Virus record (IMG/VR): IMGVR_UViG_2778261068_000007
Location: 1 to 37,264 of that record
Reading direction: 5' to 3' (one strand)
Source: a virus
Taxonomy: Duplodnaviria; Heunggongvirae; Uroviricota; Caudoviricetes
DNA length: 37,264 bases
The notes beneath the pieces are model-generated. The model worked only from the letters and a program-made list of their open reading frames with translations, made no database searches and had not been told where the DNA came from. The position numbers were made by a program, and so were the translations under genes. Position 1 is the stretch's first letter. Every line of letters starts with the position of its first letter. Shown here piece by piece: positions 1,234 through 37,264 of the stretch.

Positions 1234-2211
1234 TTACATTCCTCCCAAGGGATTAAACCTCACCGCATCCTGCAAGTAATCCGGCGCAAGATGGGCATAA
1301 ATCATCGTTGTCTGAATCTTTGCGTGCCCCAGAATTTTCTGGAGCGTCAGAATATTGCCGCCGTTCATCATGAAATGACTGGCGAAGGTGTGGCGCAGCG
1401 CATGAACAGCCTGGCCGTCAGGAACATCAGGTGCGACCGTTTTGATGACATCGCGAACCAATGGATAATCCAGCGTCGGAAACACCAGTTTCCCGCCCCG
1501 TTTTTTGATCTTTTCAAACAAACCTTCGGAGATTGGGACAGTACGGTTTTTACTATTCTTTGTTTTTGAAAAAGTGATTCGACAATGCAGAACGCGACGC
1601 TGCTCCAACGCCACTACCTCGCCCCATCGCGCCCCGGTCGACAAAAGGATTTCGACAGCCAGCCGTTCATCGGGATTTTCAGCTAGTGCATCCAGCAACT
1701 GAATACACTCAGACTTACTCAGATATCCCATTTCGCGCTCGTTAACCTTCATTCCTTTCAGGCCTTGAACGGGATTATCGTTAAGAAAATGGCCGGATGA
1801 GATGAGCGCAGTAAACATCGCGCTTAACGCCCCAATCTCTCGATTAATGGTGCTGGGCTGTATCCCCTGCTCTATCCTGGACACACGTAGCTCGGTGAGC
1901 ATCGTTGTATTAAGTTTATGCACGCACGGGTCATCCATTGCCTCACTCAAGCGCAGCAATTTAAGGCGCGTGTTATGCCCTGACTTCATTAGCTGGCCGT
2001 GGTATTTCCACCACAAGTCAATAAGCACTGACAGCGGACGGCGATCAATGGAGTTTCCTTTCCACTCATTGTTATGCTGTTGCGCCAGCACCCACCGCTC
2101 ATATAAAACTGCATCCGATTTCGTTTTAAATTTTTTACGAATGCGTTTGCCTTTACGCCCCTCCGGGCGCATGTCAAGAAGATACCCTCCCGGAATTGAT
2201 TTTATGCTCAT
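1234..2211 (-). CDS. int: Tyrosine integrase, P2 Int-like
   Basis: C-terminal catalytic region HALRHTFASHFMMNGGNILTLQKILGHAKIQTTMIYAHL; N-terminus MSIKSIPGG..RPEGRKGKRIRKKF matches remembered P2 Int (MAIKKLDDG..RPTGRNGKRIRRKF). Start placed at the internal ATG (2209-2211), not the longer ORF start at 2361. Confidence 0.9.
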   Translation of the reverse strand: MSIKSIPGGYLLDMRPEGRKGKRIRKKFKTKSDAVLYERWVLAQQHNNEWKGNSIDRRPLSVLIDLWWKYHGQLMKSGHNTRLKLLRLSEAMDDPCVHKLNTTMLTELRVSRIEQGIQPSTINREIGALSAMFTALISSGHFLNDNPVQGLKGMKVNEREMGYLSKSECIQLLDALAENPDERLAVEILLSTGARWGEVVALEQRRVLHCRITFSKTKNSKNRTVPISEGLFEKIKKRGGKLVFPTLDYPLVRDVIKTVAPDVPDGQAVHALRHTFASHFMMNGGNILTLQKILGHAKIQTTMIYAHLAPDYLQDAVRFNPLGGM

Positions 2212-2260
2212 TCGTGAAACCCCAGCGTTACAAGACCACCATGCCCCCAGCGTTCCATGA

Positions 2261-2569
2261 TTAGCCGGGCTGTGTGCCAGTCTTGCGGGGTTTTTGAGAA
2301 GGCGATGTGCTTTTTGGCCCATCAGGGGAGAGAGAGGGACTGATCTGCCCAGCAGCCTCATTCGTTTTTCCTGTCATAAGCCAATTCATGTACTTAAAAA
2401 AGCGAGGGTGATTAACAATCTTGATAAGCACTTCCCCCCCTATGTTTTCAATCCGCCCCGTTTCATAACGGCGCAAAGTGCCGATAGGCACATCAATCAG
2501 GCCGCAAAATTCTTCGCGCGTTAAATCCTCTGATTCACGAATCACTCTAATTTTTTCACCGATAAGCAT
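2261..2569 (-). CDS. Immunity repressor, P2 C-like HTH protein
   Basis: About 100 aa with HTH-like LTREEFCGLIDVPIGTLRRYETGR; sits between int and a divergent Cox-like gene as in P2; start placed at ATG 2567-2569 (the track ORF begins at an upstream GTG). Confidence 0.7.
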   Translation of the reverse strand: MLIGEKIRVIRESEDLTREEFCGLIDVPIGTLRRYETGRIENIGGEVLIKIVNHPRFFKYMNWLMTGKTNEAAGQISPSLSPDGPKSTSPSQKPRKTGTQPG

Positions 2570-4994: not shown

Positions 4995-7817
4995 GTGGCA
5001 ACGGAGTACATCAGAGACTGGCAACAACCACGCCATGCAGTCGGTCGCGAGGGAACGGGGGAGCCTGTCCGCCCCTCCCTTCTTTCTTCCTGGCTGGATG
5101 CCTACCGGGCAGAGAACGAGCGCCGCCAGGAAATGGCTGATGCGGCGTTCTCCGCTGCACCACTGGGCAATCTGATTAATAAAAGCCTGGACGCACAGGA
5201 AAAACAGGACAAAGCCATCACACTGGCAAGAGAAGCCAGAAAGCAGGCACGCGGTGCGGTGGATGAAGCCATGGCCTCGCTGCGTCTGCTGCCGTCCTAT
5301 CTGCGTGATCCGCTTATCCGCCATCTCTCTTTCCTGCGCAAAAAACAGGAATCTGGCCGCCAGAAAGGCAAAAATAGCTGGCAGGCTGAACGCTACGCGC
5401 GCGGAAACCTGCGCAAAATATTCGAACGTCTGGACTGCACCGACCGTCGCTGGCTGACTCCGGGTTATCGCTCCCTTGCCGGACGTGAACGTCTGGACGA
5501 TTTGCTGTACTTGCCACAGCTCAACAAGCACCAGATACAGACGCTGGCCGTCATGACAGCGGCAATGTTCAGCAGCACCTTCGAAAAACTCTGCGATGAC
5601 TTTGGCGCGACCGACGGCGAGCTGACCATGGATATAACGCTGAAGGCGTATCAGATGCTGGCCCGCATGGCGTTACATCTGCACACGGTGCCGCCGCATT
5701 ATGACGCACTGACAACAGACAAAGACCGGAAGAACGAACCGGACACGGAACTGCTGCCGGGTGCAATCCTCCGCCTGACCTGTGCGGACTGGTGGAAACG
5801 CAAATTGTGGCTTTTACGTTGCGAATGGAGAGAGGAACAACTCCGCGCTGCCTGTCTGGTTTCCAGAAAAACATCGCCCTATCTGAGTCAGGACGCATTA
5901 AGTGAATTTCGCGCACAGCGCGAGAAAACACGCGATTTCCTGAAAAGTTTCATGCTGGAAAATGAAGACGGGTTCACGATTGATCTCGAGACGGTGTATT
6001 ACGCGGGAGTAAGTAACCCGGTCCACCGTAAGGCAGAAATGATGGCCACCATGAAAGGGCTGGAACTTCTGGCCGAAGCCCGTGGCGACAAAGCGGTGTT
6101 TCTGACTGTCACCTGCCCGTCAAAATACCACGCAACAACGGAGAACGGTCATCCGAACCCCAAATGGAACGGGGCCACCATGCGCGACTCCAGCGATTAC
6201 CTGGTTAACACGTTTTTTGCGGCGGTCCGCAAAAAACTGAACCGCGACGGTCTGCGCTGGTATGGCATCCGCACGGTGGAGCCTCACCATGACGGCACCG
6301 TGCACTGGCATATGATGGTCTTTGCACACCCGGACGAGATTGAAACCATCGTGTCCCACGTCTGCGATATTGCCATTCAGGAAGACCGCCACGAGCTGGG
6401 CGATGACATAACTCCGCGTTTTAAGGCGGAGTACGTAGACGGCTCAAAAGGCACGCCAACCAGCTACATCGCCACCTACATCGGAAAGAACCTGGACAGC
6501 CGCGCCGTGGATGGCATCGACCCGAAAACGGGCAAGCCACGCGTTGACCACGAAACCGGAAAATCAATGGCAGAGAGCGTGGAACGCGCCATCGGCTGGG
6601 CGCGCCTTCACCGGGTCCGCCAGTTCCAGTTCTTTGGTATCCCTTCCCGTCAGGTGTGGCGTGAACTGCGTCGCCTTGCCAGCCAGATGGCACGCAACCC
6701 GGAAGGCCCGCAACGGCTGAAGGATGACGCAATGGACGCGGTTCTTGCTGCCGCTGATGCCGGATGTTTTGCCACCTACATAGAGAAACAGGGTGGCGTA
6801 CTTGTTCCACGCAAGGATTACCTGATTCGCACCGCCTACGACCTCGCAGAAGAGCTGAACGATTACGGCGAGCAAAGCGTACAGATTTACGGGATCTGGT
6901 CGCCACAAATCGGGGAATCTTCCCGCGTGTGCACGCACCCGGATAACTGGAAGCTGGTAAGACGTAAACCGGAAGCGGAAGACAGCGCCCGCGAAAATGG
7001 TTTTGACCTTCAGGGCGGCCCTGCCGCCCCTTGGACTCGTGGCAATAACTGTCCCCGTGTACAGGAAACGGACAACAACGGGACAGAACAGCCGGAAGAA
7101 CGGCCAGCACCGTGGCCGCAGCTTCCTGACGGCGTTGAAGTGAATGAATGGATGCGCTCACTGAAACGGCACGAACGCCGGGCGCTGATGCGTTCGCTGC
7201 GTGACAAACAGGCAAAAAACAGCAGTGATGAAATGCAGAGCTGGACACAGAGCCGCAAACAGCAGCGGCCTTTGCCTGATAACCACGAATTACTCGCTAA
7301 AGAATGGCGGGAGTCTGCCGAATCTCTCGGCCTGCATATCGGTGAACAACAGATGCTGCACCTGTTACGGGGCGGCAGTCTGTACGTTGACGGCAGCATC
7401 ATTGCGCCGCAGGGATATGAAATTGTACGTAAACCGGATACCCGACCGGACAGCCGAATCACGCGACTTTGGCAGCGCCTGAGTCGTAATCACAGCGTAA
7501 ACAGCACGGAAATCCGCCATAACCCGGTTTCCAGCTATCTGAAACAGCTCGGGGCATCAGACCCCGAAGCCGCCGCACGCCTGGCATCCACAATTCAGCA
7601 GGACCAGAACACCATGAAAACTCCCGTTACCGTGCTTTCTGACATGCTGCGCGCCATCCGTGACGCAGAGCACGCACAAAGATTCAATGAAACCACTGAA
7701 CGCGTCCGCCGCAAAGCAGATCTGTTGCAGGGTGGACTAACCAGTGAAAACAAAAAACAGACAAAAACGGGATTCACAAATCCCGTAAATGAGCAAAAAA
7801 CGCGCCGCGATATATGA
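4995..7817 (+). CDS. A: Rolling-circle replication initiator, P2 gpA-like
   Basis: 940-aa ORF with HWHMMVFAHPDE (HUH-type motif) and YHATTENGHPNPKWNG...TFFAAVRKKL...GLRWYGIRTVEPHHDGTVHWH; GTG start at 4995 with RBS ggag 8 nt upstream (alternative ATG at 5133); longer than remembered P2 A (about 760 aa). Confidence 0.9.
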   Translation: MATEYIRDWQQPRHAVGREGTGEPVRPSLLSSWLDAYRAENERRQEMADAAFSAAPLGNLINKSLDAQEKQDKAITLAREARKQARGAVDEAMASLRLLPSYLRDPLIRHLSFLRKKQESGRQKGKNSWQAERYARGNLRKIFERLDCTDRRWLTPGYRSLAGRERLDDLLYLPQLNKHQIQTLAVMTAAMFSSTFEKLCDDFGATDGELTMDITLKAYQMLARMALHLHTVPPHYDALTTDKDRKNEPDTELLPGAILRLTCADWWKRKLWLLRCEWREEQLRAACLVSRKTSPYLSQDALSEFRAQREKTRDFLKSFMLENEDGFTIDLETVYYAGVSNPVHRKAEMMATMKGLELLAEARGDKAVFLTVTCPSKYHATTENGHPNPKWNGATMRDSSDYLVNTFFAAVRKKLNRDGLRWYGIRTVEPHHDGTVHWHMMVFAHPDEIETIVSHVCDIAIQEDRHELGDDITPRFKAEYVDGSKGTPTSYIATYIGKNLDSRAVDGIDPKTGKPRVDHETGKSMAESVERAIGWARLHRVRQFQFFGIPSRQVWRELRRLASQMARNPEGPQRLKDDAMDAVLAAADAGCFATYIEKQGGVLVPRKDYLIRTAYDLAEELNDYGEQSVQIYGIWSPQIGESSRVCTHPDNWKLVRRKPEAEDSARENGFDLQGGPAAPWTRGNNCPRVQETDNNGTEQPEERPAPWPQLPDGVEVNEWMRSLKRHERRALMRSLRDKQAKNSSDEMQSWTQSRKQQRPLPDNHELLAKEWRESAESLGLHIGEQQMLHLLRGGSLYVDGSIIAPQGYEIVRKPDTRPDSRITRLWQRLSRNHSVNSTEIRHNPVSSYLKQLGASDPEAAARLASTIQQDQNTMKTPVTVLSDMLRAIRDAEHAQRFNETTERVRRKADLLQGGLTSENKKQTKTGFTNPVNEQKTRRDI

Positions 7818-7893: not shown

Positions 7894-8853
7894 ATGAAAA
7901 TTTGCATCGACGACGGCTCCACCAACATCAAGCTGGCATGGACTGAGAACGGCGAACGCCGCAACGCCATCAGCCCGAACAGCTTCAAGTCGGAATGGTC
8001 TGCGCCGTTCGGTGGCACACAGCCCGCGAACTACATGCTTGATGGCGTGCGCTATGGTTTTGATCCGGTCAGCGATCGCTTTGTCCAGACGACCGACACG
8101 CAATACCAGTACAGCGATGTGAATGTCATTGCCATTCATCACGCGCTGGTCAAATCAGGTATCACACCACAGGAAGTGGACGTGGTTGTCACTCTGCCAC
8201 TGAGCGAGTATTTCGATACAAACGCACAGCCGGACATGGCCAACATCAACCGCAAAAAAGCGAATGTCCTGCGCCCTGTGGAGTACCAGAACGGTGAAGC
8301 ATTCACTATCCGCAACGTGCGGGTTATGCCTGAATCCATTCCGGCTGGCTTTAAGGCACTGGCTGACATGAGTCCGTTTGAATCCCTGCTGATTGTGGAT
8401 TTAGGCGGAACAACGCTGGATGTGGCAAAGGTTCAGGGGCAACTGGCAGGCATCAGCCAGGTGTTTTGCGATCCACACGTAGGCGTTTCCCTGATGGCTG
8501 ATGCCGTGCTGTCGGTGATGGCCACTAACGGTATGCGTACCAGTCACCACATCGCCAATACCATTATTGAGCACCGTCACGATGAAGCCTGGCTACGCCA
8601 GCACATTCACAATGACGCGCATTACAACAGCCTGATGGCGGTTATTCGTGAAAAGGAGGAGACACTAAAACAACGCGTGATCCGCGCACTCGCGGGCTTT
8701 TCGGGTTACGGGCGGGTGCTGGTTGTCGGTGGAGGAGCGGAGATTGTGGCACCCGCAGTCCGTGAAATCTATGGAGTCAATGCGAATTTCATCACAGACG
8801 GGGTGCCACAGTTTGCTCTGGTTAACGGTCTGTACGCTATGGATAAGGAGTAA
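7894..8853 (+). CDS. parM: Actin-like segregation ATPase, ParM/StbA family
   Basis: N-terminus MKICIDDGSTNIKLAW closely matches remembered R1 ParM (MLVFIDDGSTNIKLQW); further shared blocks ISPNSFK.EW, YSDVNV.A.HHAL, LPL.E, VDLGGTT; RBS aaggaaaa upstream. Confidence 0.8.
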   Translation: MKICIDDGSTNIKLAWTENGERRNAISPNSFKSEWSAPFGGTQPANYMLDGVRYGFDPVSDRFVQTTDTQYQYSDVNVIAIHHALVKSGITPQEVDVVVTLPLSEYFDTNAQPDMANINRKKANVLRPVEYQNGEAFTIRNVRVMPESIPAGFKALADMSPFESLLIVDLGGTTLDVAKVQGQLAGISQVFCDPHVGVSLMADAVLSVMATNGMRTSHHIANTIIEHRHDEAWLRQHIHNDAHYNSLMAVIREKEETLKQRVIRALAGFSGYGRVLVVGGGAEIVAPAVREIYGVNANFITDGVPQFALVNGLYAMDKE

Positions 8854-21877: not shown

Positions 21878-24103
21878 ATGAGCACCACAACACGAAAATT
21901 TAAAACCGTTATCACCGATACGGGTGCAAAAAAATTAGCACAGGCAGCCGCACCAGATGGCAAACCCGTCCGCCTGACACATATGGCCGTGGGTGACGGC
22001 GGCGGTACTTTACCCACGCCAGACAGTAAGCAGACCCGTCTCGTGCATGAGGTGTGGCGACATACCGTTAATCGCGTCTTCCTGGACGCAACACATCAGA
22101 ACCGCATTATTGCGGAGCTGGTTATTCCTCCAGAAACGGGCGGATTCTGGATCCGGGAAATTGGTGTGTTTGATGAGCACGGCGATTTAATCGCGGTGGG
22201 CAATACTGCCGAAAGTTACAAGCCAGCCGTTGCCGAAGGGTCCGGGCGTGCGCAAACATTTCGCACCATCCTGACCGTATCCAGCACGGCCACCGTGGCG
22301 CTTACCGTGGATAACACCATGGTGATGGCCACAGTGGATTACGTGGATGACAAACTAAAAGAGCATGAACAGTCACGACGTCACCCGGATGCCTCGCTGA
22401 CCGCAAAAGGCTTTACTCAGTTAAGCAGTGCGACCAACAGCACGTCTGAAGCACTGGCCGCAACGCCGAAAGCGGTAAAGGCTGCATATGACCTTGCTAA
22501 CAGGAAATATACCGCACAGGATGCCACCACAGAGCAAAAAGGCCTTGTCCAGCTCAGTAGCGCCACTAACAGCGTGTCTGAAACGATGGCGGCAACGCCG
22601 AAAGCGGTAAAGGCCGCCTATGACCTTGCTAACGGGAAATATACTGCACAGGACGCCACCACAGCGCGAAAAGGCCTTGTCCAGCTCAGTAGTGCAACCA
22701 ACAGCCCGTCTGAAACGCTGGCTGCGACGCCAAAAGCTGTTAAGACGGTAATGGATGAAACGAACAAGAAAGCGCCGCTGTCGAGTCCGGCACTCACCGG
22801 AACGCCAACCGCACCAACTGCGCCAAAGGGTACTAACAATACTCAGATAGCAAACACGGCGTTCGTTATGGCCGCGATTGCCGCACTTGTAGACTCATCA
22901 CCTGACGCACTGAATACGCTGAACGAGCTGGCTGCGGCACTGGGCAATGACCCGAACTTTGCGACCACTATGACCAACGCGCTTGCGGGCAAGCAGCCGA
23001 AAGACGCCACCCTGACGGCGCTGGCCGGGCTTGCTACTGCGGCAGACAGGTTTCCGTATTTTACAGGGAATGACACCGCCAGCCTGGCAACTCTGACAAA
23101 AGTCGGGCGGGATATTCTGGCTAAAGCGACCGTTGCCGCCGTTATCGAATACCTCGGTTTGCAGGAAACGGTAGAGTTAGCGGCAGGGGCGGTACCAGCA
23201 ACACGCAAAGTAAACGGGCGTGCGTTAACCAGTGATATAAATGTTACTTCGCAGGATATTTTTAATGGGCAGAGCATTTCTATTGGTGCTAATCAAAACT
23301 TAAATGATTATATGACTCCTGGTCTGTATCATCAGTCGCTCAACGTTAATACAAGCTCTGCATTAAACTACCCGGAGAATGGCGCCGGAAATTTAATTGT
23401 GTTAAAAAATGCTGGCGTAAAACAAATTTATCATGTGTATAACTCCTCAAGAGTGTGGTCACGTAGCAAATATTCATCAGAACCATGGACACCGTGGGCA
23501 CGAGAATATAATTCACAAAGCAAACCGACCCCGGCAGAGCTCGCAGTATTGGCATTAGCTGGCGGTAGCATGTCAGGGAGTATTAAATTTATAAATGATG
23601 CCTTCCTGATTTGGGAAAGGAACACCGACTGGGCGAAAATCGGATTTAAAAATGATTCAGATTCCGATACTGACTCATACCTGTGGTTTGAAACTGGTGA
23701 TAATGGCAATGAATATTTCAAATGGCGTATCAGGGCTGGAAGCGCAACAAAAGACTTGATGTTTTTGAAGTCTGATGCGCTCAGAGTCACTGGTCAGGTT
23801 ATACCATCTAATTACGGTAATTTTGATTCCCGTTATCAGGCTAAAAATACCGCGTCCAAAGCGGCGAATGGCTGGCATAAAGATGCCTCTACGGGAGTTA
23901 TTACACAGTGGGGATATATTTCTAACGCTGGAGCGGGATTAACATTTCCGGTGGCTTTTCCATCCGCCTGCGCAAGCATAACAATTACTAACGCACACGG
24001 GCGATTTGACTACAGTATTGCTGTTAACTCACTATCCAGAACCGGGGCAAAATTTAACAGTGAAGGTAATGGCAATATGTACTGGACAGCTATAGGTTAC
24101 TAA
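21878..24103 (+). CDS. H: Tail fibre protein, P2 gpH-like, with invertible C-terminal variable part
   Basis: 741 aa; conserved N-terminal region, internal 43-aa tandem repeats, AT-rich C-terminal third beginning at the gix-like crossover site (23142-23167). Confidence 0.9.
22409..22760 (+). repeat. About 2.7 tandem copies of a 129-bp repeat inside the tail fibre gene
   Basis: Encodes [44 protein letters not shown] three times; DNA copies nearly identical. Confidence 0.6.
23142..23167. repeat. Left gix/hix-like inversion crossover site
   Basis: ttatcgaatacctcggtttgcaggaa; inverted match to the 26020-26045 site and similar to remembered Mu gix (TTCCTGTAAACCGAGGTTTTGGATAA). Confidence 0.7.
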
Positions 24104-24544: not shown

Positions 24545-25078
24545 TCATTCTGGTTGTTCGGGGAACGTGACTGGCAGGACGGAGGTATCCGTAGACTCTA
24601 CTTTCTGCGCGTAGAGCAGCCACTCGGTCAATTTTTGTTTATTCTCAGCAGAAATAATTCCAAGTCGTAGCTGAGAATCCCATAGCTGAGTTTTATCCCT
24701 GACGAGTTGTAACAGGTTTTGCTTCTCATTTTCCGCCTGTTGTCTCTGTTCTTCTTCGGTATATTCCCGCTTTATCACTGCGCCATCTTTGAACATCCAG
24801 TTACCAGAAATATCGACCCGCCTATTGGCTGTAATATCAGGAACCTCAACAACGCTTAAACCTTCGGGATTAATTGTTGATACATCCTTATCTACAGCCA
24901 CAATGATTCCATCGGCAGTGTAAGCAAATTTTATTGTATCTTCCTGAAAGTTTTTCTGTTCTTCATACCAGTTCTTACCGTCTTCCGACCACAACCAGAC
25001 AACACCGAACTGTCGTGTTAATTCATATTGTTCAACGGTTTTTGGATTTCCCGACTTGATGTTTTTTAAATGCATCAT
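24545..25078 (-). CDS. Alternative tail fibre assembly chaperone
   Basis: 177-aa ORF on the opposite strand inside the invertible segment, mirroring G. Confidence 0.75.
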   Translation of the reverse strand: MMHLKNIKSGNPKTVEQYELTRQFGVVWLWSEDGKNWYEEQKNFQEDTIKFAYTADGIIVAVDKDVSTINPEGLSVVEVPDITANRRVDISGNWMFKDGAVIKREYTEEEQRQQAENEKQNLLQLVRDKTQLWDSQLRLGIISAENKQKLTEWLLYAQKVESTDTSVLPVTFPEQPE

Positions 25079-25080
25079 AA

Positions 25081-26070
25081 TTAAATACTTCCCGCATTAT
25101 ACCAGGTGCCATTGATACAATATTGCACTGGCCTTGCCTGTGTTGTATCAATAATTTCATCTTTGTTTGAGTTAACGGAACCTGTAACAACGTAACCAGA
25201 TTTATCGCCCCAGCCAGGACCATTCCATGTTTGCGCTGATGATTTTGTACCTAATCGGATACCTGTAATAAACCGCGTATTACATTCCGCTTTAGTATAT
25301 GCCCCAACATCTGCCGCTGATGGTTTTCGGGTTGTGGTGTAAAACTCTGACCAGTCAGCCTCGAAGCCATAACCATCACGCGCTGAACGATAATAAATAC
25401 CGCCGTTCTTATAATTTACGCGGAACTGAACAGCAGGGCAGCTACCCGCGTTCATATTGAAATGAAGAATTAATGTTGATGCACCTTTTAGGTCTGCATC
25501 ATAAACACCGCTATTCCAGTTCCAGCCAACAGCTTTATCATTTGCAACCCTACTGCCTGTTATCCCTAAAGCAAAAGCAGCCTGCTGATTTTTCGTGTTG
25601 TAGTCACGTCGCCAGCCAGGTAAATACTCTGAACCGTGGTTAATATATATAAATTGTGCATTAGTGGTGCCACCACCGCTAGAGGTACTCGGTGTGGTTA
25701 TACGAATGGTCATGGCGCCTTTATTGCCCATAACTTCAATAACGCAACCCGCAAGGTGAATAAGTCCACATCCGGTGTCAGTAATAATTTTATTATTGCC
25801 GTATGACCAGGAGCATTTACACATCCAGTATGGATGATTGAAGGCCCATTGAGATTCCAGCCATTCAATAAATTGCGCCGTCGTCCAGTTTCCTGCACCT
25901 GTGCTAATAGAACCATGAAAAGAGCGGCAAGCACCTATTGTTTGCGTAAATTTATCTTTGTTTGGAATATCTGCGCCGTTCTGGTTTTTCTGCAACGCAC
26001 CAGAAGCCTGATTTACCGTTTCCTGCAAACCGAGGTTTTTGATAATGGTCGTTTCTGGCCCACATGGCAT
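25081..26070 (-). CDS. Alternative tail fibre C-terminal segment, currently promoterless
   Basis: ORF runs up to and across the right gix-like site; its crossover-encoded peptide NLGLQETV matches H (YLGLQETV); inversion would fuse it to the constant N-terminal part of H. The functional exon is probably 25081..about 26045. Confidence 0.7.
   Translation of the reverse strand: MPCGPETTIIKNLGLQETVNQASGALQKNQNGADIPNKDKFTQTIGACRSFHGSISTGAGNWTTAQFIEWLESQWAFNHPYWMCKCSWSYGNNKIITDTGCGLIHLAGCVIEVMGNKGAMTIRITTPSTSSGGGTTNAQFIYINHGSEYLPGWRRDYNTKNQQAAFALGITGSRVANDKAVGWNWNSGVYDADLKGASTLILHFNMNAGSCPAVQFRVNYKNGGIYYRSARDGYGFEADWSEFYTTTRKPSAADVGAYTKAECNTRFITGIRLGTKSSAQTWNGPGWGDKSGYVVTGSVNSNKDEIIDTTQARPVQYCINGTWYNAGSI
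26020..26045. repeat. Right gix/hix-like inversion crossover site
   Basis: ttcctgcaaaccgaggtttttgataa; its reverse complement differs from the left site at about 3 of 26 positions. Confidence 0.7.
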
Positions 26071-26099
26071 GATTTGTGCCTTTGAGCGGGAGATTCAAC

Positions 26100-26699
26100 G
26101 TGCTGATTGGCTATGTAAGGGTATCAACAAATGACCAGAACACGGATTTGCAACGCAATGCGCTCAATAGCGCAGGATGTGAACTGATTTTTGAAGATAA
26201 AATCAGCGGAACAAAGTCAGCCAGACCGGGATTGAAAAAACTGCTCAGAACACTGTCAGAAGGCGATACGCTGGTTGTCTGGAAACTGGACAGGCTGGGC
26301 AGAAGCATGAAACACCTGATCACACTGATTGAGGAATTACGGGAAAAAGGTGTCAATTTTCGTAGTCTGACGGACAGCATTGACACATCAACACCCATGG
26401 GGCGCTTCTTTTTTCACGTCATGGGGGCTTTAGCTGAAATGGAACGCGAACTGATAGTTGAACGTACCAGGGCAGGACTGGCAGCAGCCCGCGCACAGGG
26501 GCGCATTGGTGGGCGTCGCCCGAAACTGACAAAAGAGCAACATGAGCAAATAGCAAGGCTGATTAAAAACGGCCATGACAGAAAACAACTGGCCATAATT
26601 TACGGTATTGGTATATCGACGATTTATCGTTACCACCCCGCGGGAGAATCAACCGGAACAACAGAGAAGACCAGAGGAAACAAAAAACCGCTAATCTGA
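26100..26699 (+). CDS. Serine DNA invertase, Hin/Gin/Cin/Pin family
   Basis: LIGYVRVSTNDQNTDLQRNAL...LVVWKLDRLGRS...GRFFFHVMGALAEMERELIVERT...AAARAQGRIGGRRPKLT matches the remembered Hin sequence including the catalytic Ser region; GTG start 26100 with RBS gggag. Confidence 0.9.
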   Translation: MLIGYVRVSTNDQNTDLQRNALNSAGCELIFEDKISGTKSARPGLKKLLRTLSEGDTLVVWKLDRLGRSMKHLITLIEELREKGVNFRSLTDSIDTSTPMGRFFFHVMGALAEMERELIVERTRAGLAAARAQGRIGGRRPKLTKEQHEQIARLIKNGHDRKQLAIIYGIGISTIYRYHPAGESTGTTEKTRGNKKPLI

Positions 26700-32290: not shown

Positions 32291-32447
32291 AGTTCCAGCC
32301 CCTTGTATCCGTTAAATGATTCGGCAACAATCATCACCCACCACGCGCGCAATCTCATCCCTGCGCCGTTCTTGCCGCCCGGCGACAACAAAAAGCAGTA
32401 ACCCCGCCCGCACACACATGCGACCATGCTGCACAGGGAGGGAGCCG

Positions 32448-33548
32448 ATGATTGACACCACCATGCAACTGTTCAACCAGAGTACTGACCCCGTGAAGAT
32501 GCCTGATTTTGATATTCTCGCGGAGGGGAAAACGCTGTCCGGTGTGGCAGAACGCCTGATGAGCCTGTCACTGACCGACAACCGGGGATTTGAAGCAGAC
32601 CAGCTCACCATCACGCTGGATGATGCTGATGGTCAGTTGCAGTTGCCGCCACGGGGCGCTCGCCTGACGGTTCTCATTGGCTGGAAAGGCGAACCGCTGA
32701 CAGAAAAAGGCACTTACATTGTTGATGAAATTGCTCATGAAGGACCGCCCGACAGACTGACCATTTCAGCCAGAAGCGCAGATTTTCGGGATGAATTTAA
32801 CGTCAAGCGCGAAGTATCCTGGCATGATGTGACCGTTGAACGCGTGGTGTCTGCAATTGCTCACCGATACGGCCTGAAACCGCAAATCAGCGAAATGCTG
32901 ATGGATATCGAAATCGACCACGCAGACCAGACCGAAGAAAGCGACATGTCCTTCCTTACACGCATGGCGGAAATGTTGGGCGCAATCACCACGGTAAAAA
33001 GCGGTAATCTGTTATTCATTATGCCAGGTGGTGGCGTGAACGCGCAGGGAAAACCATTGCCATCGTTTGCCATCACACGCAGCAGCGGCGATCGCCATCA
33101 GTTTCGCATTGCTGACCGCGAGGCGTATACAGGTGTACGCGCCTACTGGCTTGATCTTAATTACGGGAAAAAGAAAAAAGTCAGCGTGAAACGCCGCAAA
33201 CCGAAAAAGGAGAAAAGCAGCAGCCGGGAAGGCGACTATATGGCAGGCGCGGAAGGCAACGTGTTTGTGTTACGCAAGACTTATCAGAACGAGCAGGCAG
33301 CAAGACGCGCAGCGGCGGCAAAGTGGCAGCAGCTACAACGCGGAGCCGCATTATTCTCCATCACGCTGGCGCGTGGACGTGCAGAACTCTATCCCGAAAT
33401 GCATGGCACAGTGGCAGGCTTCAAAAGCGACATCGACAATCAGGACTGGATTATCGCAAAAGCCGAGCACACCATTGATGGCAGTGGTTTTATCACGCAG
33501 CTTGAGCTTGAAGCAAAAATCCCGGAATGGATAGCAGAAACAGAGTGA
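32448..33548 (+). CDS. D: Tail protein D, P2 gpD-like
   Basis: Start placed at ATG 32448 after RBS gggagggag (track ORF begins upstream at 32316); about 366 aa. Confidence 0.8.
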   Translation: MIDTTMQLFNQSTDPVKMPDFDILAEGKTLSGVAERLMSLSLTDNRGFEADQLTITLDDADGQLQLPPRGARLTVLIGWKGEPLTEKGTYIVDEIAHEGPPDRLTISARSADFRDEFNVKREVSWHDVTVERVVSAIAHRYGLKPQISEMLMDIEIDHADQTEESDMSFLTRMAEMLGAITTVKSGNLLFIMPGGGVNAQGKPLPSFAITRSSGDRHQFRIADREAYTGVRAYWLDLNYGKKKKVSVKRRKPKKEKSSSREGDYMAGAEGNVFVLRKTYQNEQAARRAAAAKWQQLQRGAALFSITLARGRAELYPEMHGTVAGFKSDIDNQDWIIAKAEHTIDGSGFITQLELEAKIPEWIAETE

Positions 33549-33773: not shown

Positions 33774-35276
33774 ATGAACAAAAAGCTGTATTTATTCCCA
33801 GACTCAAACATTTTTCTACAATGCAAGGCCTTGACGCAGGTAAATTTTTCCGAGATTACTGCTTGTGATGAAGTATGTATCATTATTACAAGGCCCATTC
33901 AGCAAGAGATTGACCGCCAGAAAGGGCAAGGTAATTCCCGCCTATCCAAAAAAGCAAGGAAGGCTGCTAGCCTATTTAATCAAGTAGTTGATTCAACTGA
34001 CATGACTCTTGTTATTCGTGAACGCTCGCCGCGAGTTTTTCTTACCATGGATCTAAGCCTGAAACCATGTGAACAGTTATCTGAACAATTGGATTATCAG
34101 GAGGCCGACGATCGTTTTGTTGGTATTGCGGCAGGGTATTGCGCTGACGATCCAGATTCGGAGGTGGCAATCATTACCAATGATAGCGGTCCACGTTTTT
34201 CAGCAATAAAACATAATATAATCTGCTATAAAGTGCCTTCTTCATGGTTGCTTCCTGCTGAGCCAGATGAAAAGGATAAACAAATTAAATTGCTGGAAGC
34301 TAAGCTGAAGCAATTCACTCAGTCTATGCCCGATTTCAGCATTAAAGCAGCCGATGACGAGCAATTAAATATTGTACTTCCTTATTATACAGCTTTATCT
34401 GAATATGAAGTTGATAATTTGCTTTGTCAACTAACGGATGCATTCCCATTGGTTACAAACTTTGACAATGAACAAACTACCCCACAATCACTAGAAAAAA
34501 TCATCAAGTCATTTAGTCAACAGGAGTATTTCCCTGTATCAGCAGATGATATTTCTCTTTATAAAGAAAAACATTATCCACTTTGGAAAAAGCAGTGTGA
34601 AGAAATACTGAAAAACTGTCATACTCATATTAATCCGAAGGCAATAAAATACCCGCTGTCGTTTTTATTACAAAACACAGGTTATACTATCGCTGAACGT
34701 GCTGTGGTAACATTTACAGCAAAAGGAGATTTTCGTCTGTGTGGATTTAATTGGGAGATAATGGAAGAGCTGACTGAAAGCAAAAGGATTGACCTACCTT
34801 CAGCCCCTACCGCACCCAAAGGAAAATGGCGTAGTGTATGTGGCGTAACAGAAAGAATGCCTTACGCTTGGGGAGCTTTGGAAACACCGCTATCCAGTAT
34901 AATTTCAAAAGAAATTGGTCCTTTGTTATCTCTTACTCCAACAGAAAGGGATAAAAACGATTTTTATTATAAAGAAAAGAGAAATGTGCCAGTTCAAGTT
35001 GTATCGCTGGAATGCGAAGAGTGGCGTCATCAAGTCAAAGAAGAAATATTCCCGTTGTTCGTATATACAGCCAACAAACCAAAGAAAGTGAATGGTGCAA
35101 TTGAGGTGAGAGTTGATGCAAATAACCTTACCAATCCGGTCATTAAAACATTTAAATTAAAAATAACTATAGAAGAACATAGTGCATTTTCAACCATAAC
35201 AGAAATGGTGCAGACATACATTCAAGAGCAGAAGAAAAGACAGAAAAGTTCTATTAGCGCACAAATCAAAACATGA
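33774..35276 (+). CDS. PIN-domain protein with a roughly 350-aa uncharacterised C-terminal region
   Basis: N-terminal 150 aa carries the PIN acidic residues in order (LFPDSNIF, QQEID, EADDRF, IITNDSG); gene and flanks are AT-rich unlike the phage backbone; inserted between D and ogr. Confidence 0.6.
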   Translation: MNKKLYLFPDSNIFLQCKALTQVNFSEITACDEVCIIITRPIQQEIDRQKGQGNSRLSKKARKAASLFNQVVDSTDMTLVIRERSPRVFLTMDLSLKPCEQLSEQLDYQEADDRFVGIAAGYCADDPDSEVAIITNDSGPRFSAIKHNIICYKVPSSWLLPAEPDEKDKQIKLLEAKLKQFTQSMPDFSIKAADDEQLNIVLPYYTALSEYEVDNLLCQLTDAFPLVTNFDNEQTTPQSLEKIIKSFSQQEYFPVSADDISLYKEKHYPLWKKQCEEILKNCHTHINPKAIKYPLSFLLQNTGYTIAERAVVTFTAKGDFRLCGFNWEIMEELTESKRIDLPSAPTAPKGKWRSVCGVTERMPYAWGALETPLSSIISKEIGPLLSLTPTERDKNDFYYKEKRNVPVQVVSLECEEWRHQVKEEIFPLFVYTANKPKKVNGAIEVRVDANNLTNPVIKTFKLKITIEEHSAFSTITEMVQTYIQEQKKRQKSSISAQIKT

Positions 35277-35519: not shown

Positions 35520-35780
35520 ATGTTCCGTTGTCCGCTTTGCCGCGCATCTGCCCGTATCCGCACCAGTCGTCCTGAAAATGATTCAAACACCGTGCGGCAA
35601 AAGTATTACCAGTGTAACAATCTAGAATGCGGCGTATGCTTCTCAACACTGGAAGCTTTCCATAAATTCACATCGAAACACGCCTCCGGCGTTCACTCTT
35701 CAGAAGGTATCCCGTGGCATGAGCTGCCAGCTTCACACAGGGGAAACAATCAGATGAGTTTGCCTTTGCCTCAAAATTAA
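35520..35780 (+). CDS. ogr: Late transcription activator, Ogr-like zinc finger
   Basis: MFRCPLCRASARIRTSRP...YYQCNNLECGVCFSTLEAF parallels remembered Ogr (MFHCPLCQHAAHARTSRY...YHQCQNVNCSATFITYESV); RBS aagggagg. Confidence 0.85.
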   Translation: MFRCPLCRASARIRTSRPENDSNTVRQKYYQCNNLECGVCFSTLEAFHKFTSKHASGVHSSEGIPWHELPASHRGNNQMSLPLPQN

Positions 35781-35840
35781 CAGGCAGAATTGCCGGAGTA
35801 ACAAAAAAGCGATAGATTACGCGCGGGTGCCTTTCGGCTA

Positions 35841-36053
35841 ATGGCTGGAGGGAATACCCAAAGGCCGGATGTGGAAAGGCCCCGGAAAACATCTCTGTTT
35901 AACCGAGGCCCTGACCATCTAACCTTAGCAAGTGATAGGTTAGCGCCTCCACAAAAAAGGAGCAAGCGCTATGTCGCAAAAATCGCTGATAGCCATCACG
36001 TTCTGCGTGACGGTAATCCTCATCATCTGGATGCTGCACGGTTCGCTGTGTGA
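35841..36053 (+). CDS. mok-like overlapping reading frame of the hok-type locus
   Basis: 70-aa ORF in another frame overlapping the start and most of the hok-like ORF, the same arrangement and size as mok. Confidence 0.35.
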   Translation: MAGGNTQRPDVERPRKTSLFNRGPDHLTLASDRLAPPQKRSKRYVAKIADSHHVLRDGNPHHLDAARFAV

Positions 36054-36111
36054 AATACGGATGAGCTTCTGGGGAGCGGAGTTTGCGGCGTTCTTACAGT
36101 GTAAGCAGTAA
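35971..36111 (+). CDS. hok: Hok/Gef-family type I toxin (46 aa)
   Basis: MSQKSLIAITFCVTVILIIWMLHGSLCEIRMSFWGAEFAAFLQCKQ: N-terminal TM helix then SLCEIR and AAF, as in remembered Hok (..[25 protein letters not shown]..); RBS aaggag 8 nt upstream; absent from the ORF track because under 60 aa. Confidence 0.7.
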   Translation: MSQKSLIAITFCVTVILIIWMLHGSLCEIRMSFWGAEFAAFLQCKQ

Positions 36112-36196
36112 GGAAACCGCGACGGGGGAGCAATCCCCCGTCAATCGGTTGCTAAGGCTGGCCGAAGTGGCACCCTATCCCATGGACACAAACAAG

Positions 36197-36232
36197 AAAA
36201 CCCGCAGCGTAAATACTGCGGGTTTTCTTTTT
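36197..36232 (+). terminator. Rho-independent terminator of the hok-like transcript
   Basis: aaaacccgcag-cgtaaata-ctgcgggtttt followed by CTTTTT. Confidence 0.6.
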
Positions 36233-36293: not shown

Positions 36294-36330
36294 CATATCG
36301 GCAGCAGTAACCACATAAGAGGTGCCGCAG

Positions 36331-36528
36331 ATGATGCAAAATATACGATGCAAAAATTGCTATAAATTACTTGCCCGCGCCTCATTTCACCACATTGAAA
36401 TAAAATGTCCGCGTTGCAAAACCCTTAACCAGGTAACGAGAGCCATCGAGCCCCCCACACACATGAGGAGCTATGACCGTGGGGATCGCAATCCAGCACA
36501 AAACAGCCCATACCCCGGAATACACTAA
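36331..36528 (+). CDS. com: Mu Com-like zinc-finger protein (candidate translational activator)
   Basis: MMQNIRCKNCYKLLARASFHHIEIKCPRCKTLNQV parallels remembered Mu Com (MKSIRCKNCNKLLFKADSFDHIEIRCPRCKRHIIM); RBS aagagg 8 nt upstream; 3' end overlaps the methyltransferase start by 56 nt. Confidence 0.7.
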   Translation: MMQNIRCKNCYKLLARASFHHIEIKCPRCKTLNQVTRAIEPPTHMRSYDRGDRNPAQNSPYPGIH

Positions 36529-37264
36529 GATTTACCAGACTGACAATGCCACGCTCTGCTGTGGGAATGCACTGGAAATATTGCCGCTGATTGAGCCAGA
36601 AAGCATTGATGCCTTAATCACTGATCCGCCTTACAGCTCAGGGGCAACACACAAGGCCGGACGCACCAACCAGGGCAGCCACGCAAAATATCTGAACGGC
36701 GAGAGCCTTCACCGCTTTGATGGATTTGCGGGTGAAAATATGGATGCCCGTTCGTGGGCTTACTGGACACAATTATGGATGGCACAGGCATACCGCGCAG
36801 TCAGGCCGGGCGGTTATGCCCTGGTGTTTACTGACTGGCGGCAACTGCCTGCTTTAACCGATGCGTTTCAGGCCAGCGGCTTTACATGGCGTGGAATCAT
36901 TGCGTGGAACAAAGGGAGGGGGTCACGAACACCCCATACCGGGTATTTCCGGCATCAGTGCGAATACATCGTCTGGGGCAGTAAAGGCCATTTAGGTAAA
37001 TCGCCTTCGGGACCGTTCGACGGCTGCATGACGTTCCCGGTTATCCCGTCAAAGAAACTGCATCCGACCGGAAAACCAGAAGAGTTAATGGCGGAGCTGG
37101 TCAGGACTGCGAATAGAGGCGGAACAGTCCTTGATCCTTTTATGGGGTCAGGGACAACGGGTATTGCAGCACTGAAAGCAGGACGCAAATTTATTGGTAT
37201 AGAAACCAGTGATCATTATTTTGATGTAGCAACACAACGGCTCAAAACGGCGATCGAACCATAA
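36473..37264 (+). CDS. DNA methyltransferase, N6-adenine or N4-cytosine, beta-class
   Basis: Catalytic motif ITDPPYSS precedes the AdoMet-binding motif DPFMGSGTT (beta-class order); start overlaps the end of the Com-like gene; alternative GTG start at 36479. Confidence 0.85.
   Translation: MTVGIAIQHKTAHTPEYTKIYQTDNATLCCGNALEILPLIEPESIDALITDPPYSSGATHKAGRTNQGSHAKYLNGESLHRFDGFAGENMDARSWAYWTQLWMAQAYRAVRPGGYALVFTDWRQLPALTDAFQASGFTWRGIIAWNKGRGSRTPHTGYFRHQCEYIVWGSKGHLGKSPSGPFDGCMTFPVIPSKKLHPTGKPEELMAELVRTANRGGTVLDPFMGSGTTGIAALKAGRKFIGIETSDHYFDVATQRLKTAIEP

Follow-up and report, generated by a model that had tools for sequence, protein, structure and literature searches.

How could a hok toxin gene be silenced and then released if the leader of its messenger offered no start for mok, the reading frame on which the system of plasmid R1 depends? 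The question is raised by a locus near the right end of a P2-like (P88/Xuanwuvirus-like) Escherichia coli prophage, IMG/VR virus record IMGVR_UViG_2778261068_000007, whose 37,264 nucleotides (nt) we call the window. An original prediction, made from the sequence alone, had noticed a hok/mok-like type I toxin locus directly downstream of ogr. Our analysis supports a type I toxin locus of the Hok/Gef family on this prophage. Its identity as hok/sok is almost certain, and it very probably forms a complete toxin-antitoxin cassette of a 46-residue HokA-like subfamily, a cargo element lying between ogr and the prophage's right end. The sequence itself and comparison among homologues support the assignment to the toxin family, the closed fold of the full-length messenger, the conserved boxes and the antisense promoter. 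The locus is a real, complete and ordinary hok/sok element, already annotated and catalogued. Its sole unusual point, a minor twist, is that it belongs to a subfamily that appears to have no conserved mok start.

The comparison rests on 82 distinct homologous loci (74-99% identity) taken from E. coli and Salmonella genomes and from IMG/VR. Their diversity came mainly from a scan of IMG/VR with DNA patterns, an alignment-based search with the peptide having given only 6 loci. The coordinates of all features are collected in Table 1.

The toxin gene and the fold of its messenger

The toxin gene encodes the 46-residue peptide MSQKSLIAITFCVTVILIIWMLHGSLCEIRMSFWGAEFAAFLQCKQ. A hydrophobic helix spans residues 6-24 (Kyte-Doolittle 2.39), the motif SLCEIR includes C27, C44 lies within FLQCK, and an AAF motif is also present. 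This is the architecture of Hok/Gef proteins: one transmembrane helix at the N terminus, a periplasmic L-C-E motif after it and, towards the C terminus, a further Cys/Tyr position. Pfam HOK_GEF (PF01848) covers residues 6-44 with 31.1 bits (gathering score 22, E 1.8e-7). The Hok/Gef-like open reading frame (ORF) that had been read by eye is therefore confirmed, as is its good ribosome-binding site (RBS), a Shine-Dalgarno (SD) sequence 9 nt 5' of the ATG. M1, C12, T14, C27 and E28 are invariant among relatives, in agreement with the conserved positions listed elsewhere (bioRxiv 10.1101/2025.08.07.668861). Of 81 distinct homologous loci, which span 74-99% nucleotide identity, 80 keep the frame intact at 46 codons. 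The idea that an ORF track had missed the gene has nothing behind it but the small size of the peptide; RefSeq/PGAP annotates it routinely.

The best NCBIfam match of the peptide is HokA, with 35.4 bits for the equivalog NF007290, whose cut-off of 89 is not reached; the peptide is related to HokA and is not its orthologue. Its amino-acid identity is 43% to HokA, both cysteines being shared, 39% over 31 residues to R1 Hok, with LCEIR common to both, and 40% over 42 aligned residues to a 51-aa HokD/W-type peptide that is near-identical to HokW.

A promoter upstream of the toxin gene keeps its 17-nt spacer in 78 of 81 homologues, and TTGCC or TTGCG together with TAnAnT is retained even where the upstream flanks are unrelated. 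We predict that it is weak and constitutive. A simple scan for the sigma-70 consensus listed neither this promoter nor that of the antisense RNA Sok, and both were placed by comparison. The messenger is predicted to start at G35825, because this position lies 7 nt past the -10 hexamer and because position 1 of the Rfam sok/hok leader model (RF01794) aligns there. In a permissive search that model was matched over its full length (1-157) on the plus strand, with 38.8 bits and E 4e-7. Other weak Rfam matches (Thr/Leu leaders, MicC, miRNAs) all fell on the terminator hairpin and were discarded as generic terminator matches.

The transcript is strongly structured, with a minimum free energy (MFE) of -190 kcal/mol over 411 nt against -134 +/- 5.6 for shuffled sequences (z = -10.1). 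When the structure derived from the window was laid on the alignment of the 82 loci, 88% of cells were paired, against 40-44% with the partners slid, a figure that is somewhat favoured because the structure comes from one of the aligned sequences. Across these loci 53 pairs change on both sides, and none of 500 shuffles reached the observed value. The 5' element tac (mean majority fraction 0.97 over 80 loci) pairs with the fold-back inhibitor (fbi) in helix 1, where 87% of cells are paired over the 82 loci. Between them, the GAGG of the leader pairs with GGCC of the ucb-like box in the full-length fold of the window, and the 3' anti-target pairs with CCUUAGCAA at 35923-35931, in a helix (9) where 9 of 13 pairs have changed on both sides. 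The two helices of the sokT hairpin (7 and 8) are paired in 86-89% of cells, with AU/CG exchanges and 24 variants of the loop part. Helices 10 and 11 form the hairpin that holds the hok SD and the A of its AUG (92-100% paired), and RNAalifold recovers the pairing of 35940-35945 with 35965-35970. Folding the homologues one by one at full length gave tac-fbi in 74/74 loci, GAGG-ucb in 72/74 and SD-dcb in 74/74. The ucb and dcb boxes are nearly invariant, so that covariation has no power on a switch between them.

The structured 3' hairpins and the terminator that had been noticed were found as well. The post-stop hairpin (helix 18) is paired in 99.9% of cells, with both sides changed in 5 of 9 pairs, and is probably the 3' end protector of a processed messenger, a role that we draw from data on the 3' stem-loop of R1 (PMC9841398). 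Between sublineages, similarity stops right past fbi, and unrelated terminators replace one another between lineages. This agrees with a module that would have fbi as its functional 3' border.

A leader with GAGG and a predicted Sok

The original prediction had seen a mok-like frame of 70 aa overlapping the toxin gene. The frame exists and does overlap hok, but it is not mok: just 13 of the 81 loci have it open, the other 68, among them phage P88 at 93% identity, having it interrupted, and it has no Pfam or NCBIfam match. Its ATG at 35841 lies 17 nt into the messenger, inside tac and the 5' hairpin, and has no SD. Across homologues the ORF that begins there has scattered ends, lying between -123 and +131 when counted from the hok ATG.

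The place where mok might be expected is marked by the conserved GAGG, which stands at the position of the canonical mok SD, 66 nt before the hok ATG here and 69 nt before it in R1-like and HokD/W-type loci. No ATG follows it at 3-16 nt in any of 79 loci (0/79), and a TTG does so in 9 of 79. The positive controls behave otherwise: the R1-like plasmid locus has an ATG 12 nt past GAGG, and so do 78 of the 80 prophage loci of HokD/W type. Moreover, 52 of 81 loci are without any leader ORF starting at ATG, GTG or TTG and reaching the hok SD. Candidates for a conserved leader ORF included the ATG at +17, in-frame N-terminal extensions and near-cognate starts, and none was conserved. As judged from these alignments, the subfamily appears to keep tac, ucb, GAGG, dcb, fbi and the Sok promoter but to be without a mok initiation site, and a true absence of mok from the subfamily is probable. 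In R1 the start and the SD of mok are genetically essential for the synthesis of Hok (PMC9841398).

In the loci that do have a mok start, the R1-like plasmid locus (L135) and the HokD/W-type prophage loci (L136-L215), the mok frame is not fixed relative to hok and can be in frame, +1 or +2, even among close relatives. The start 12 nt past GAGG is kept all the same in 78 of the 80 HokD/W-type loci, and in some variants Mok is therefore an N-terminally extended Hok.

Phage records in RefSeq label the 141-nt hok coding sequence (CDS) of the subfamily "MokW-like host killing", for example in P88 (NC_026014.1, our locus L001). The label appears to be a misnomer and is misleading, because the CDS that bears it is the hok ORF and the subfamily seems to have no conserved mok. 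It should not be taken as evidence of a mok gene.

An antisense RNA had been expected opposite the mok start, with its promoter on the minus strand around 35820-35900. The conserved -35/-10 pair lies elsewhere, at 35937-35965, and the Sok predicted from it would face GAGG and sokT, not the ATG at 35841. Its -10 hexamer TAACCT is found in 80 of 82 loci and the 17-nt spacer in 77 of 82, the -35 hexamer being TTGCTC, TTGCCT or TTGACT. For comparison, primers and probes published for hokW-sokW of the Stx2 prophage Sp5 led us to its sequence in IMG/VR contigs. There the promoter of sokW, TTGCCT-17-TAACCT, lies at the homologous position, and its -10 is identical to that of the window. Mutations in the sokW -10 abolish antitoxin activity (Takada et al. 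2021, PMC8621323).

The predicted start of Sok near 35931 was placed 6-8 nt past this conserved -10. The RNA would fold (-25.8 kcal/mol, z = -3.3) into a 15-bp hairpin preceded by a free 5' tail of about 19 nt. No part of the leader varies more than the target of this tail, for which 80 loci show 31 variants. Two IMG/VR contigs, L035 (4275-5463) and L113 (5501-6423), each carry two cassettes of this subfamily in tandem, with near-identical toxins and different Sok-tail targets. A variable target is consistent with a specificity determinant that would insulate several hok/sok pairs within a cell. Overall, a Sok-like antisense RNA is strongly predicted at this locus, and it is quite probable that Sok is functional.

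Table 1. Positions of the features of the hok/sok cassette and of the prophage genes around it
Feature	Positions	Strand	Remarks
hok promoter	35790-35818	+	-35 TTGCCG (35790-35795), 17-nt spacer, -10 TAGATT (35813-35818)
Full-length hok mRNA, about 408 nt	35825-36232	+	predicted; start G35825 inferred, 3' end set at the terminator
tac element GGGUGCCUUUCGGCUA	35825-35840	+	5' end; pairs with 36159-36175 in the full-length mRNA and with ucb in the truncated one (MFE)
70-aa overlapping frame ("mok-like")	35841-36053	+	judged fortuitous, no part of the system
ucb-like box GGAAAGGCCCC	35873-35883	+	conservation 0.96
sokT hairpin	35878-35910	+	complement forms the terminator-like hairpin of Sok
GAGG at the canonical mok SD position	35905-35908	+	conserved; no start codon after it
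Target of the single-stranded Sok 5' tail	35910-35931	+	hypervariable
Sok-like antisense RNA, about 60-65 nt	~35931 to ~35868	-	predicted, as are both ends
Sok promoter	35937-35965	-	predicted; -35 TTGCTC (complement of 35960-35965), 17-nt spacer, -10 TAACCT (complement of 35937-35942)
dcb (anti-SD) box GCGCCUCC	35943-35950	+	essentially invariant
hok SD, AAGGAG	35956-35961	+	inside hairpin UAGCGCCUCC...GGAGCAAGCGCUA (35940-35971)
hok toxin gene, 46 codons and stop	35971-36111	+	Pfam HOK_GEF, exact peptide in NCBI, ORF conservation
Post-stop hairpin, 9 bp, GC-rich	36121-36142	+	arms GACGGGGGA (36121-36129) and TCCCCCGTC (36134-36142)
3' anti-target UUGCUAAGG	36149-36157	+	covers the target of the Sok tail while the mRNA is full-length
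fbi element UGGCCGAAGUGGCACCC	36159-36175	+	pairs with the mRNA 5' end
Intrinsic terminator	36194-36232	.	14-15 bp stem, T-run on the plus strand, usable tail on the minus strand
Integrase	1234-2361	-	P2-like prophage gene
Replication gene A	4995-7817		P2-type
gpD	32316-33548		
ogr, Ogr/Delta zinc finger	35520-35780		directly upstream of the hok cassette

Proposed mechanism and rival readings

We propose that the full-length messenger, made constitutively, would be inert, with tac and fbi closed on each other, GAGG held by ucb, the SD and AUG held in the dcb hairpin and the Sok target masked. The steps that follow are taken from the paradigms of R1 and hokW. Slow trimming of the 3' end down to the post-stop hairpin would remove fbi and the anti-target, whereupon tac would switch to ucb and expose the GAGG/sokT region. 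An abundant and unstable Sok would pair there, and RNase III would cut the duplex. Once the supply of Sok ended, through loss of the element or a shut-off of transcription such as that of phage attack or induction, the stable processed messenger would be translated and Hok would permeabilise the inner membrane. Given that no mok is conserved, Sok must act without blocking it, likely through RNase III decay, by locking dcb back onto the hok SD, or both.

How the SD would be opened without mok is harder to say, and we offer one tentative answer that we regard as somewhat doubtful. In this mok-less variant, GAGG would serve as an RNA relay (an "anti-anti-SD") and not as an RBS. Freed by 3' processing, GAGGC would pair with GCCUC of dcb and pull it off the hok SD, and Sok would silence the gene by sequestering GAGG so that dcb returns, in addition to promoting RNase III decay. 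The folds of the 3'-processed messengers give it some substance. They pair tac with ucb in 46 of 74 loci, as does the truncated MFE of the window, and GAGG with dcb, the SD being displaced, in 46 of 75; the SD is still on dcb in the other 29 of 75, by a strict count where a laxer one had given 66 of 74 truncated folds. The state with GAGG on dcb was never seen in full-length folds nor with the Sok target blocked in the model, the SD being on dcb in 74/74 loci in both. We propose the relay only as a hypothesis, because the displaced SD usually finds other partners and its ensemble accessibility hardly changes. If true, it would be a version of the classic hok switch that is independent of a leader peptide.

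Several results weigh against the view of a complete cassette controlled by Sok. At gathering thresholds Rfam gave no match in the whole window, the 38.8 bits of the leader falling short of the RF01794 cut-off of 59, and eight relatives that score 38-50 bits also stay below it. The covariance-model search thus yielded a match that is significant and full-length but below threshold, and the subfamily is a significant but sub-threshold, divergent branch of RF01794. RNAalifold on the MAFFT alignment of the 82 sequences, whose 3' part is gappy, did not recover tac/fbi. Each hexamer of the Sok promoter has only 3 of 6 matches to the sigma-70 consensus, hence its absence from the simple scan, and because the promoter overlaps the hok SD and the SD hairpin, these could be the reason why the -35 and a portion of the -10 are conserved. 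The U-tract of the Sok terminator is also very short, only UUU. That of R1 Sok is likewise poor. The ensemble accessibility of the hok SD is nearly equal in the full-length (0.40), truncated (0.35) and Sok-blocked (0.40) states, and, with the truncated MFE leaving the SD on dcb in the 29 loci mentioned above, the translatability of hok without mok is left unexplained. Finally, chromosomal hok loci tested earlier showed no post-segregational killing (Pedersen & Gerdes 1999, as summarised in bioRxiv 10.1101/2025.08.07.668861).

What the prophage would gain is a separate matter. The original prediction had thought of stabilisation of the element or of abortive infection, and a trigger that responds to transcription shut-off would be equally compatible with prophage retention, abortive infection or an aid to lysis. 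R1 hok/sok excludes T4. The most serious rival places the benefit entirely in lysis, as with hokW-sokW of Sp5: Sok would be lost after induction and Hok would speed lysis and phage release, to the exclusion of stabilisation and abortive infection. There is precedent for this, since hokW-sokW does so in its Stx2 prophage (PMC8621323), and a close relative of our cassette (82% nucleotide identity) sits beside lom in lambdoid/Stx phages. In the window the cassette follows the late-gene activator ogr directly, on the same strand and with no terminator in between. Yet HokW belongs to another Hok subfamily and has mok, some copies of our cassette have no obvious late genes around them, for instance those beside rpmE-like genes, and the shut-off trigger would fit retention or abortive infection equally well. 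We consider a role restricted to lysis unlikely.

Another reading holds that the cassette is a decaying hitch-hiker, recognisable in sequence but with a toxin and an antitoxin that are no longer expressed, as for several hok loci of K-12. The chromosomal hokA, hokB and hokC, for which earlier work found no killing (as summarised in bioRxiv 10.1101/2025.08.07.668861), and the lack of a mok start that canonical loci need might be thought to favour it, as might two damaged copies, one with a mutated tac (L005) and one with a frameshifted ORF (L128). A relic is nevertheless improbable, given the conservation of the toxin frame across the homologues. Adjacent segments vary freely, but conservation reaches 96-100% in tac, ucb, dcb and the -10 of Sok, and compensatory changes maintain helices 9 and 18. 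The cassette travels in one piece, bounded exactly at fbi, from one prophage context to another, be it P2-like, lambdoid/Stx or of another kind, and peptides of the toxin's own family are toxic when expressed (bioRxiv 10.1101/2025.08.07.668861). Least probable of all is the canonical reading, in which the 70-aa frame is mok, its translation opens the hok RBS and Sok blocks its start: in spite of a frame that overlaps hok, of the need for mok in R1 (PMC9841398) and of a GAGG conserved at the right place, it is largely refuted by the leader comparison given above and by a predicted Sok that does not reach 35841.

The reading that we prefer is thus a Sok-controlled hok cassette that probably works without mok. 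A widespread subfamily that appears to keep every RNA box of R1 except the essential mok start would provide a natural test of Sok control without translational coupling. It would also be a tractable prophage system in which to ask how Hok benefits a phage, by retention, by exclusion of other phages or by helping lysis.

Neighbourhood, distribution and named relatives

The right 25 kb of the window are 91-94% identical, over about 70-77% of their length, to Escherichia phages Chuche and 500465-2 and to Citrobacter phage Shae_phiSM, and at the same level of identity, over 44%, to P88 (Peduoviridae, Xuanwuvirus). The window also contains tail and head genes. The cassette (35790-36232) stands between ogr and a variable pair of cargo genes (36322-37264), and similarity to most other prophages ends at about 36243, just past the hok terminator. 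The pair consists of a Com-like zinc-ribbon ORF (36322-36528, plus strand) and an N6/N4 DNA methyltransferase gene (36473-37264), the first 56 nt of which lie within the zinc-ribbon ORF. Its layout is that of com/mom in phage Mu, but with a methylase instead, and the same pair lies downstream of hok in E. coli MB07081 (L005). For annotation, the value of our analysis is that positions 35790-36232, with promoters, leader, Sok and terminator, can be described as one cargo module of a P2-like prophage.

On the other side, between gpD and ogr, an ORF on the plus strand (33774-35276) encodes a protein of 500 aa that has a PIN_4 domain at its N terminus. The block made of this gene, ogr and hok recurs at 97.8% identity in many E. 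coli chromosomes. PADLOC models matched neither the Hok peptide nor the PIN protein, and the latter may be an uncharacterised cargo or defence gene of the prophage. Further away, a ParM-like actin segregation protein (7894-8853, plus strand; StbA_N and ParM C-terminal domains, E 7e-82) adjoins the P2-type gene A; such a plasmid-partition ATPase is unusual for an integrating P2-like prophage. A serine resolvase/invertase (26076-26699, plus strand) lies beside oppositely oriented ORFs (24545-26070, minus strand), downstream of a large ORF of tail-fibre size (21878-24103), and the region 24545-26699 looks like an invertible host-range segment of the Cin/Gin type.

The locus is common. NCBI lists its exact peptide, on 71 contigs, under the title "MULTISPECIES: Hok/Gef family protein [Escherichia]". 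A blastn search with the 460-nt locus matched 198 phage records, including P88, Chuche and 500465-2, as well as 1757 of the 5426 complete genomes of E. coli, where the gene bears the annotation "Hok/Gef family protein". Among relatives, the cassette follows ogr at the end of the prophage, adjoining for instance serS in EC958 and a tRNA cluster in strain 510016. Copies of this Hok with 77-98% amino-acid identity occur in records labelled as a Planococcaceae metagenome-assembled genome, Vagococcus sp. and Xanthomonas pisi (L010, L011, L014), and these are most likely contaminations or mis-binned contigs. In Salmonella enterica subsp. diarizonae (L015:1509-1695, minus strand), the hok homologue has the small RNA STnc540 (185.7 bits for Rfam RF02082) some 170 nt downstream.

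A recent catalogue by Escalera-Maurer et al. (bioRxiv 10.1101/2025.08.07.668861) describes 32,532 Hok loci, their enrichment in prophages and 6290 homologues in IMG/VR, and its supplementary tables place the family of our peptide in cluster 72. Two of its peptides are near ours, 72_1621, which differs at 2 of 46 residues (96%), and 72_1589 (78%). Both were included in the authors' toxicity screen of 45 peptides, of which three, all with other identifiers, were non-toxic, and we predict by analogy that the peptide of the window would be toxic on expression. The catalogue was by design an analysis of coding sequences, with mok, Sok and the fold of the messenger outside its scope, and it reports no enrichment of hok near defence systems. 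The transcriptome paper of Owen et al. 2020 has nothing on hok. As a gene call the locus is thus nothing new: the peptide is named in NCBI, about one-third of complete E. coli genomes are annotated with it, and its family is catalogued, with peptides known to be toxic.

Among named systems, cluster 72, which corresponds to the RefSeq names "Hok/Gef family protein" and, in P88, "MokW-like host killing", shares the peptide family of the window toxin. HokA of the hokA/sokA locus of E. coli K-12, compared by peptide only, is the closest named toxin, with 50 aa against 46. The hokW-sokW locus of Sp5 resembles ours in being prophage-borne, in the TAACCT, the 17-nt spacing and the TTGCxx of its Sok promoter and in a messenger whose 5' end also starts with GGGUGC. 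It differs in its 51-aa, HokC/D-like toxin (about 40% identity, as judged through the near-identical HokD/W-type peptide), in its mok ATG 12 nt past GAGG and in reaching the Rfam family, for which our subfamily stays below threshold. Its function has been tested experimentally (PMC8621323).

The R1 hok/mok/sok (parB) system shares only about 38% of identical DNA columns with the locus and is plasmid-borne, with a toxin of 52 aa against 46 and a leader of 168 nt against 146. The predicted Sok promoter is 8 nt nearer to the hok AUG in the window, where neither a mok start nor a conserved leader ORF was found. For the rest, the two have much in common: a Hok/Gef toxin with the LCEIR motif, a messenger of about 400 nt closed by 5' tac and 3' fbi, the ucb and dcb boxes, a hok SD buried by an upstream CCUC box, a stable 3' hairpin, an antisense promoter (predicted in the window) with 17-nt spacing in the leader, and a GAGG 66-69 nt before the hok AUG.

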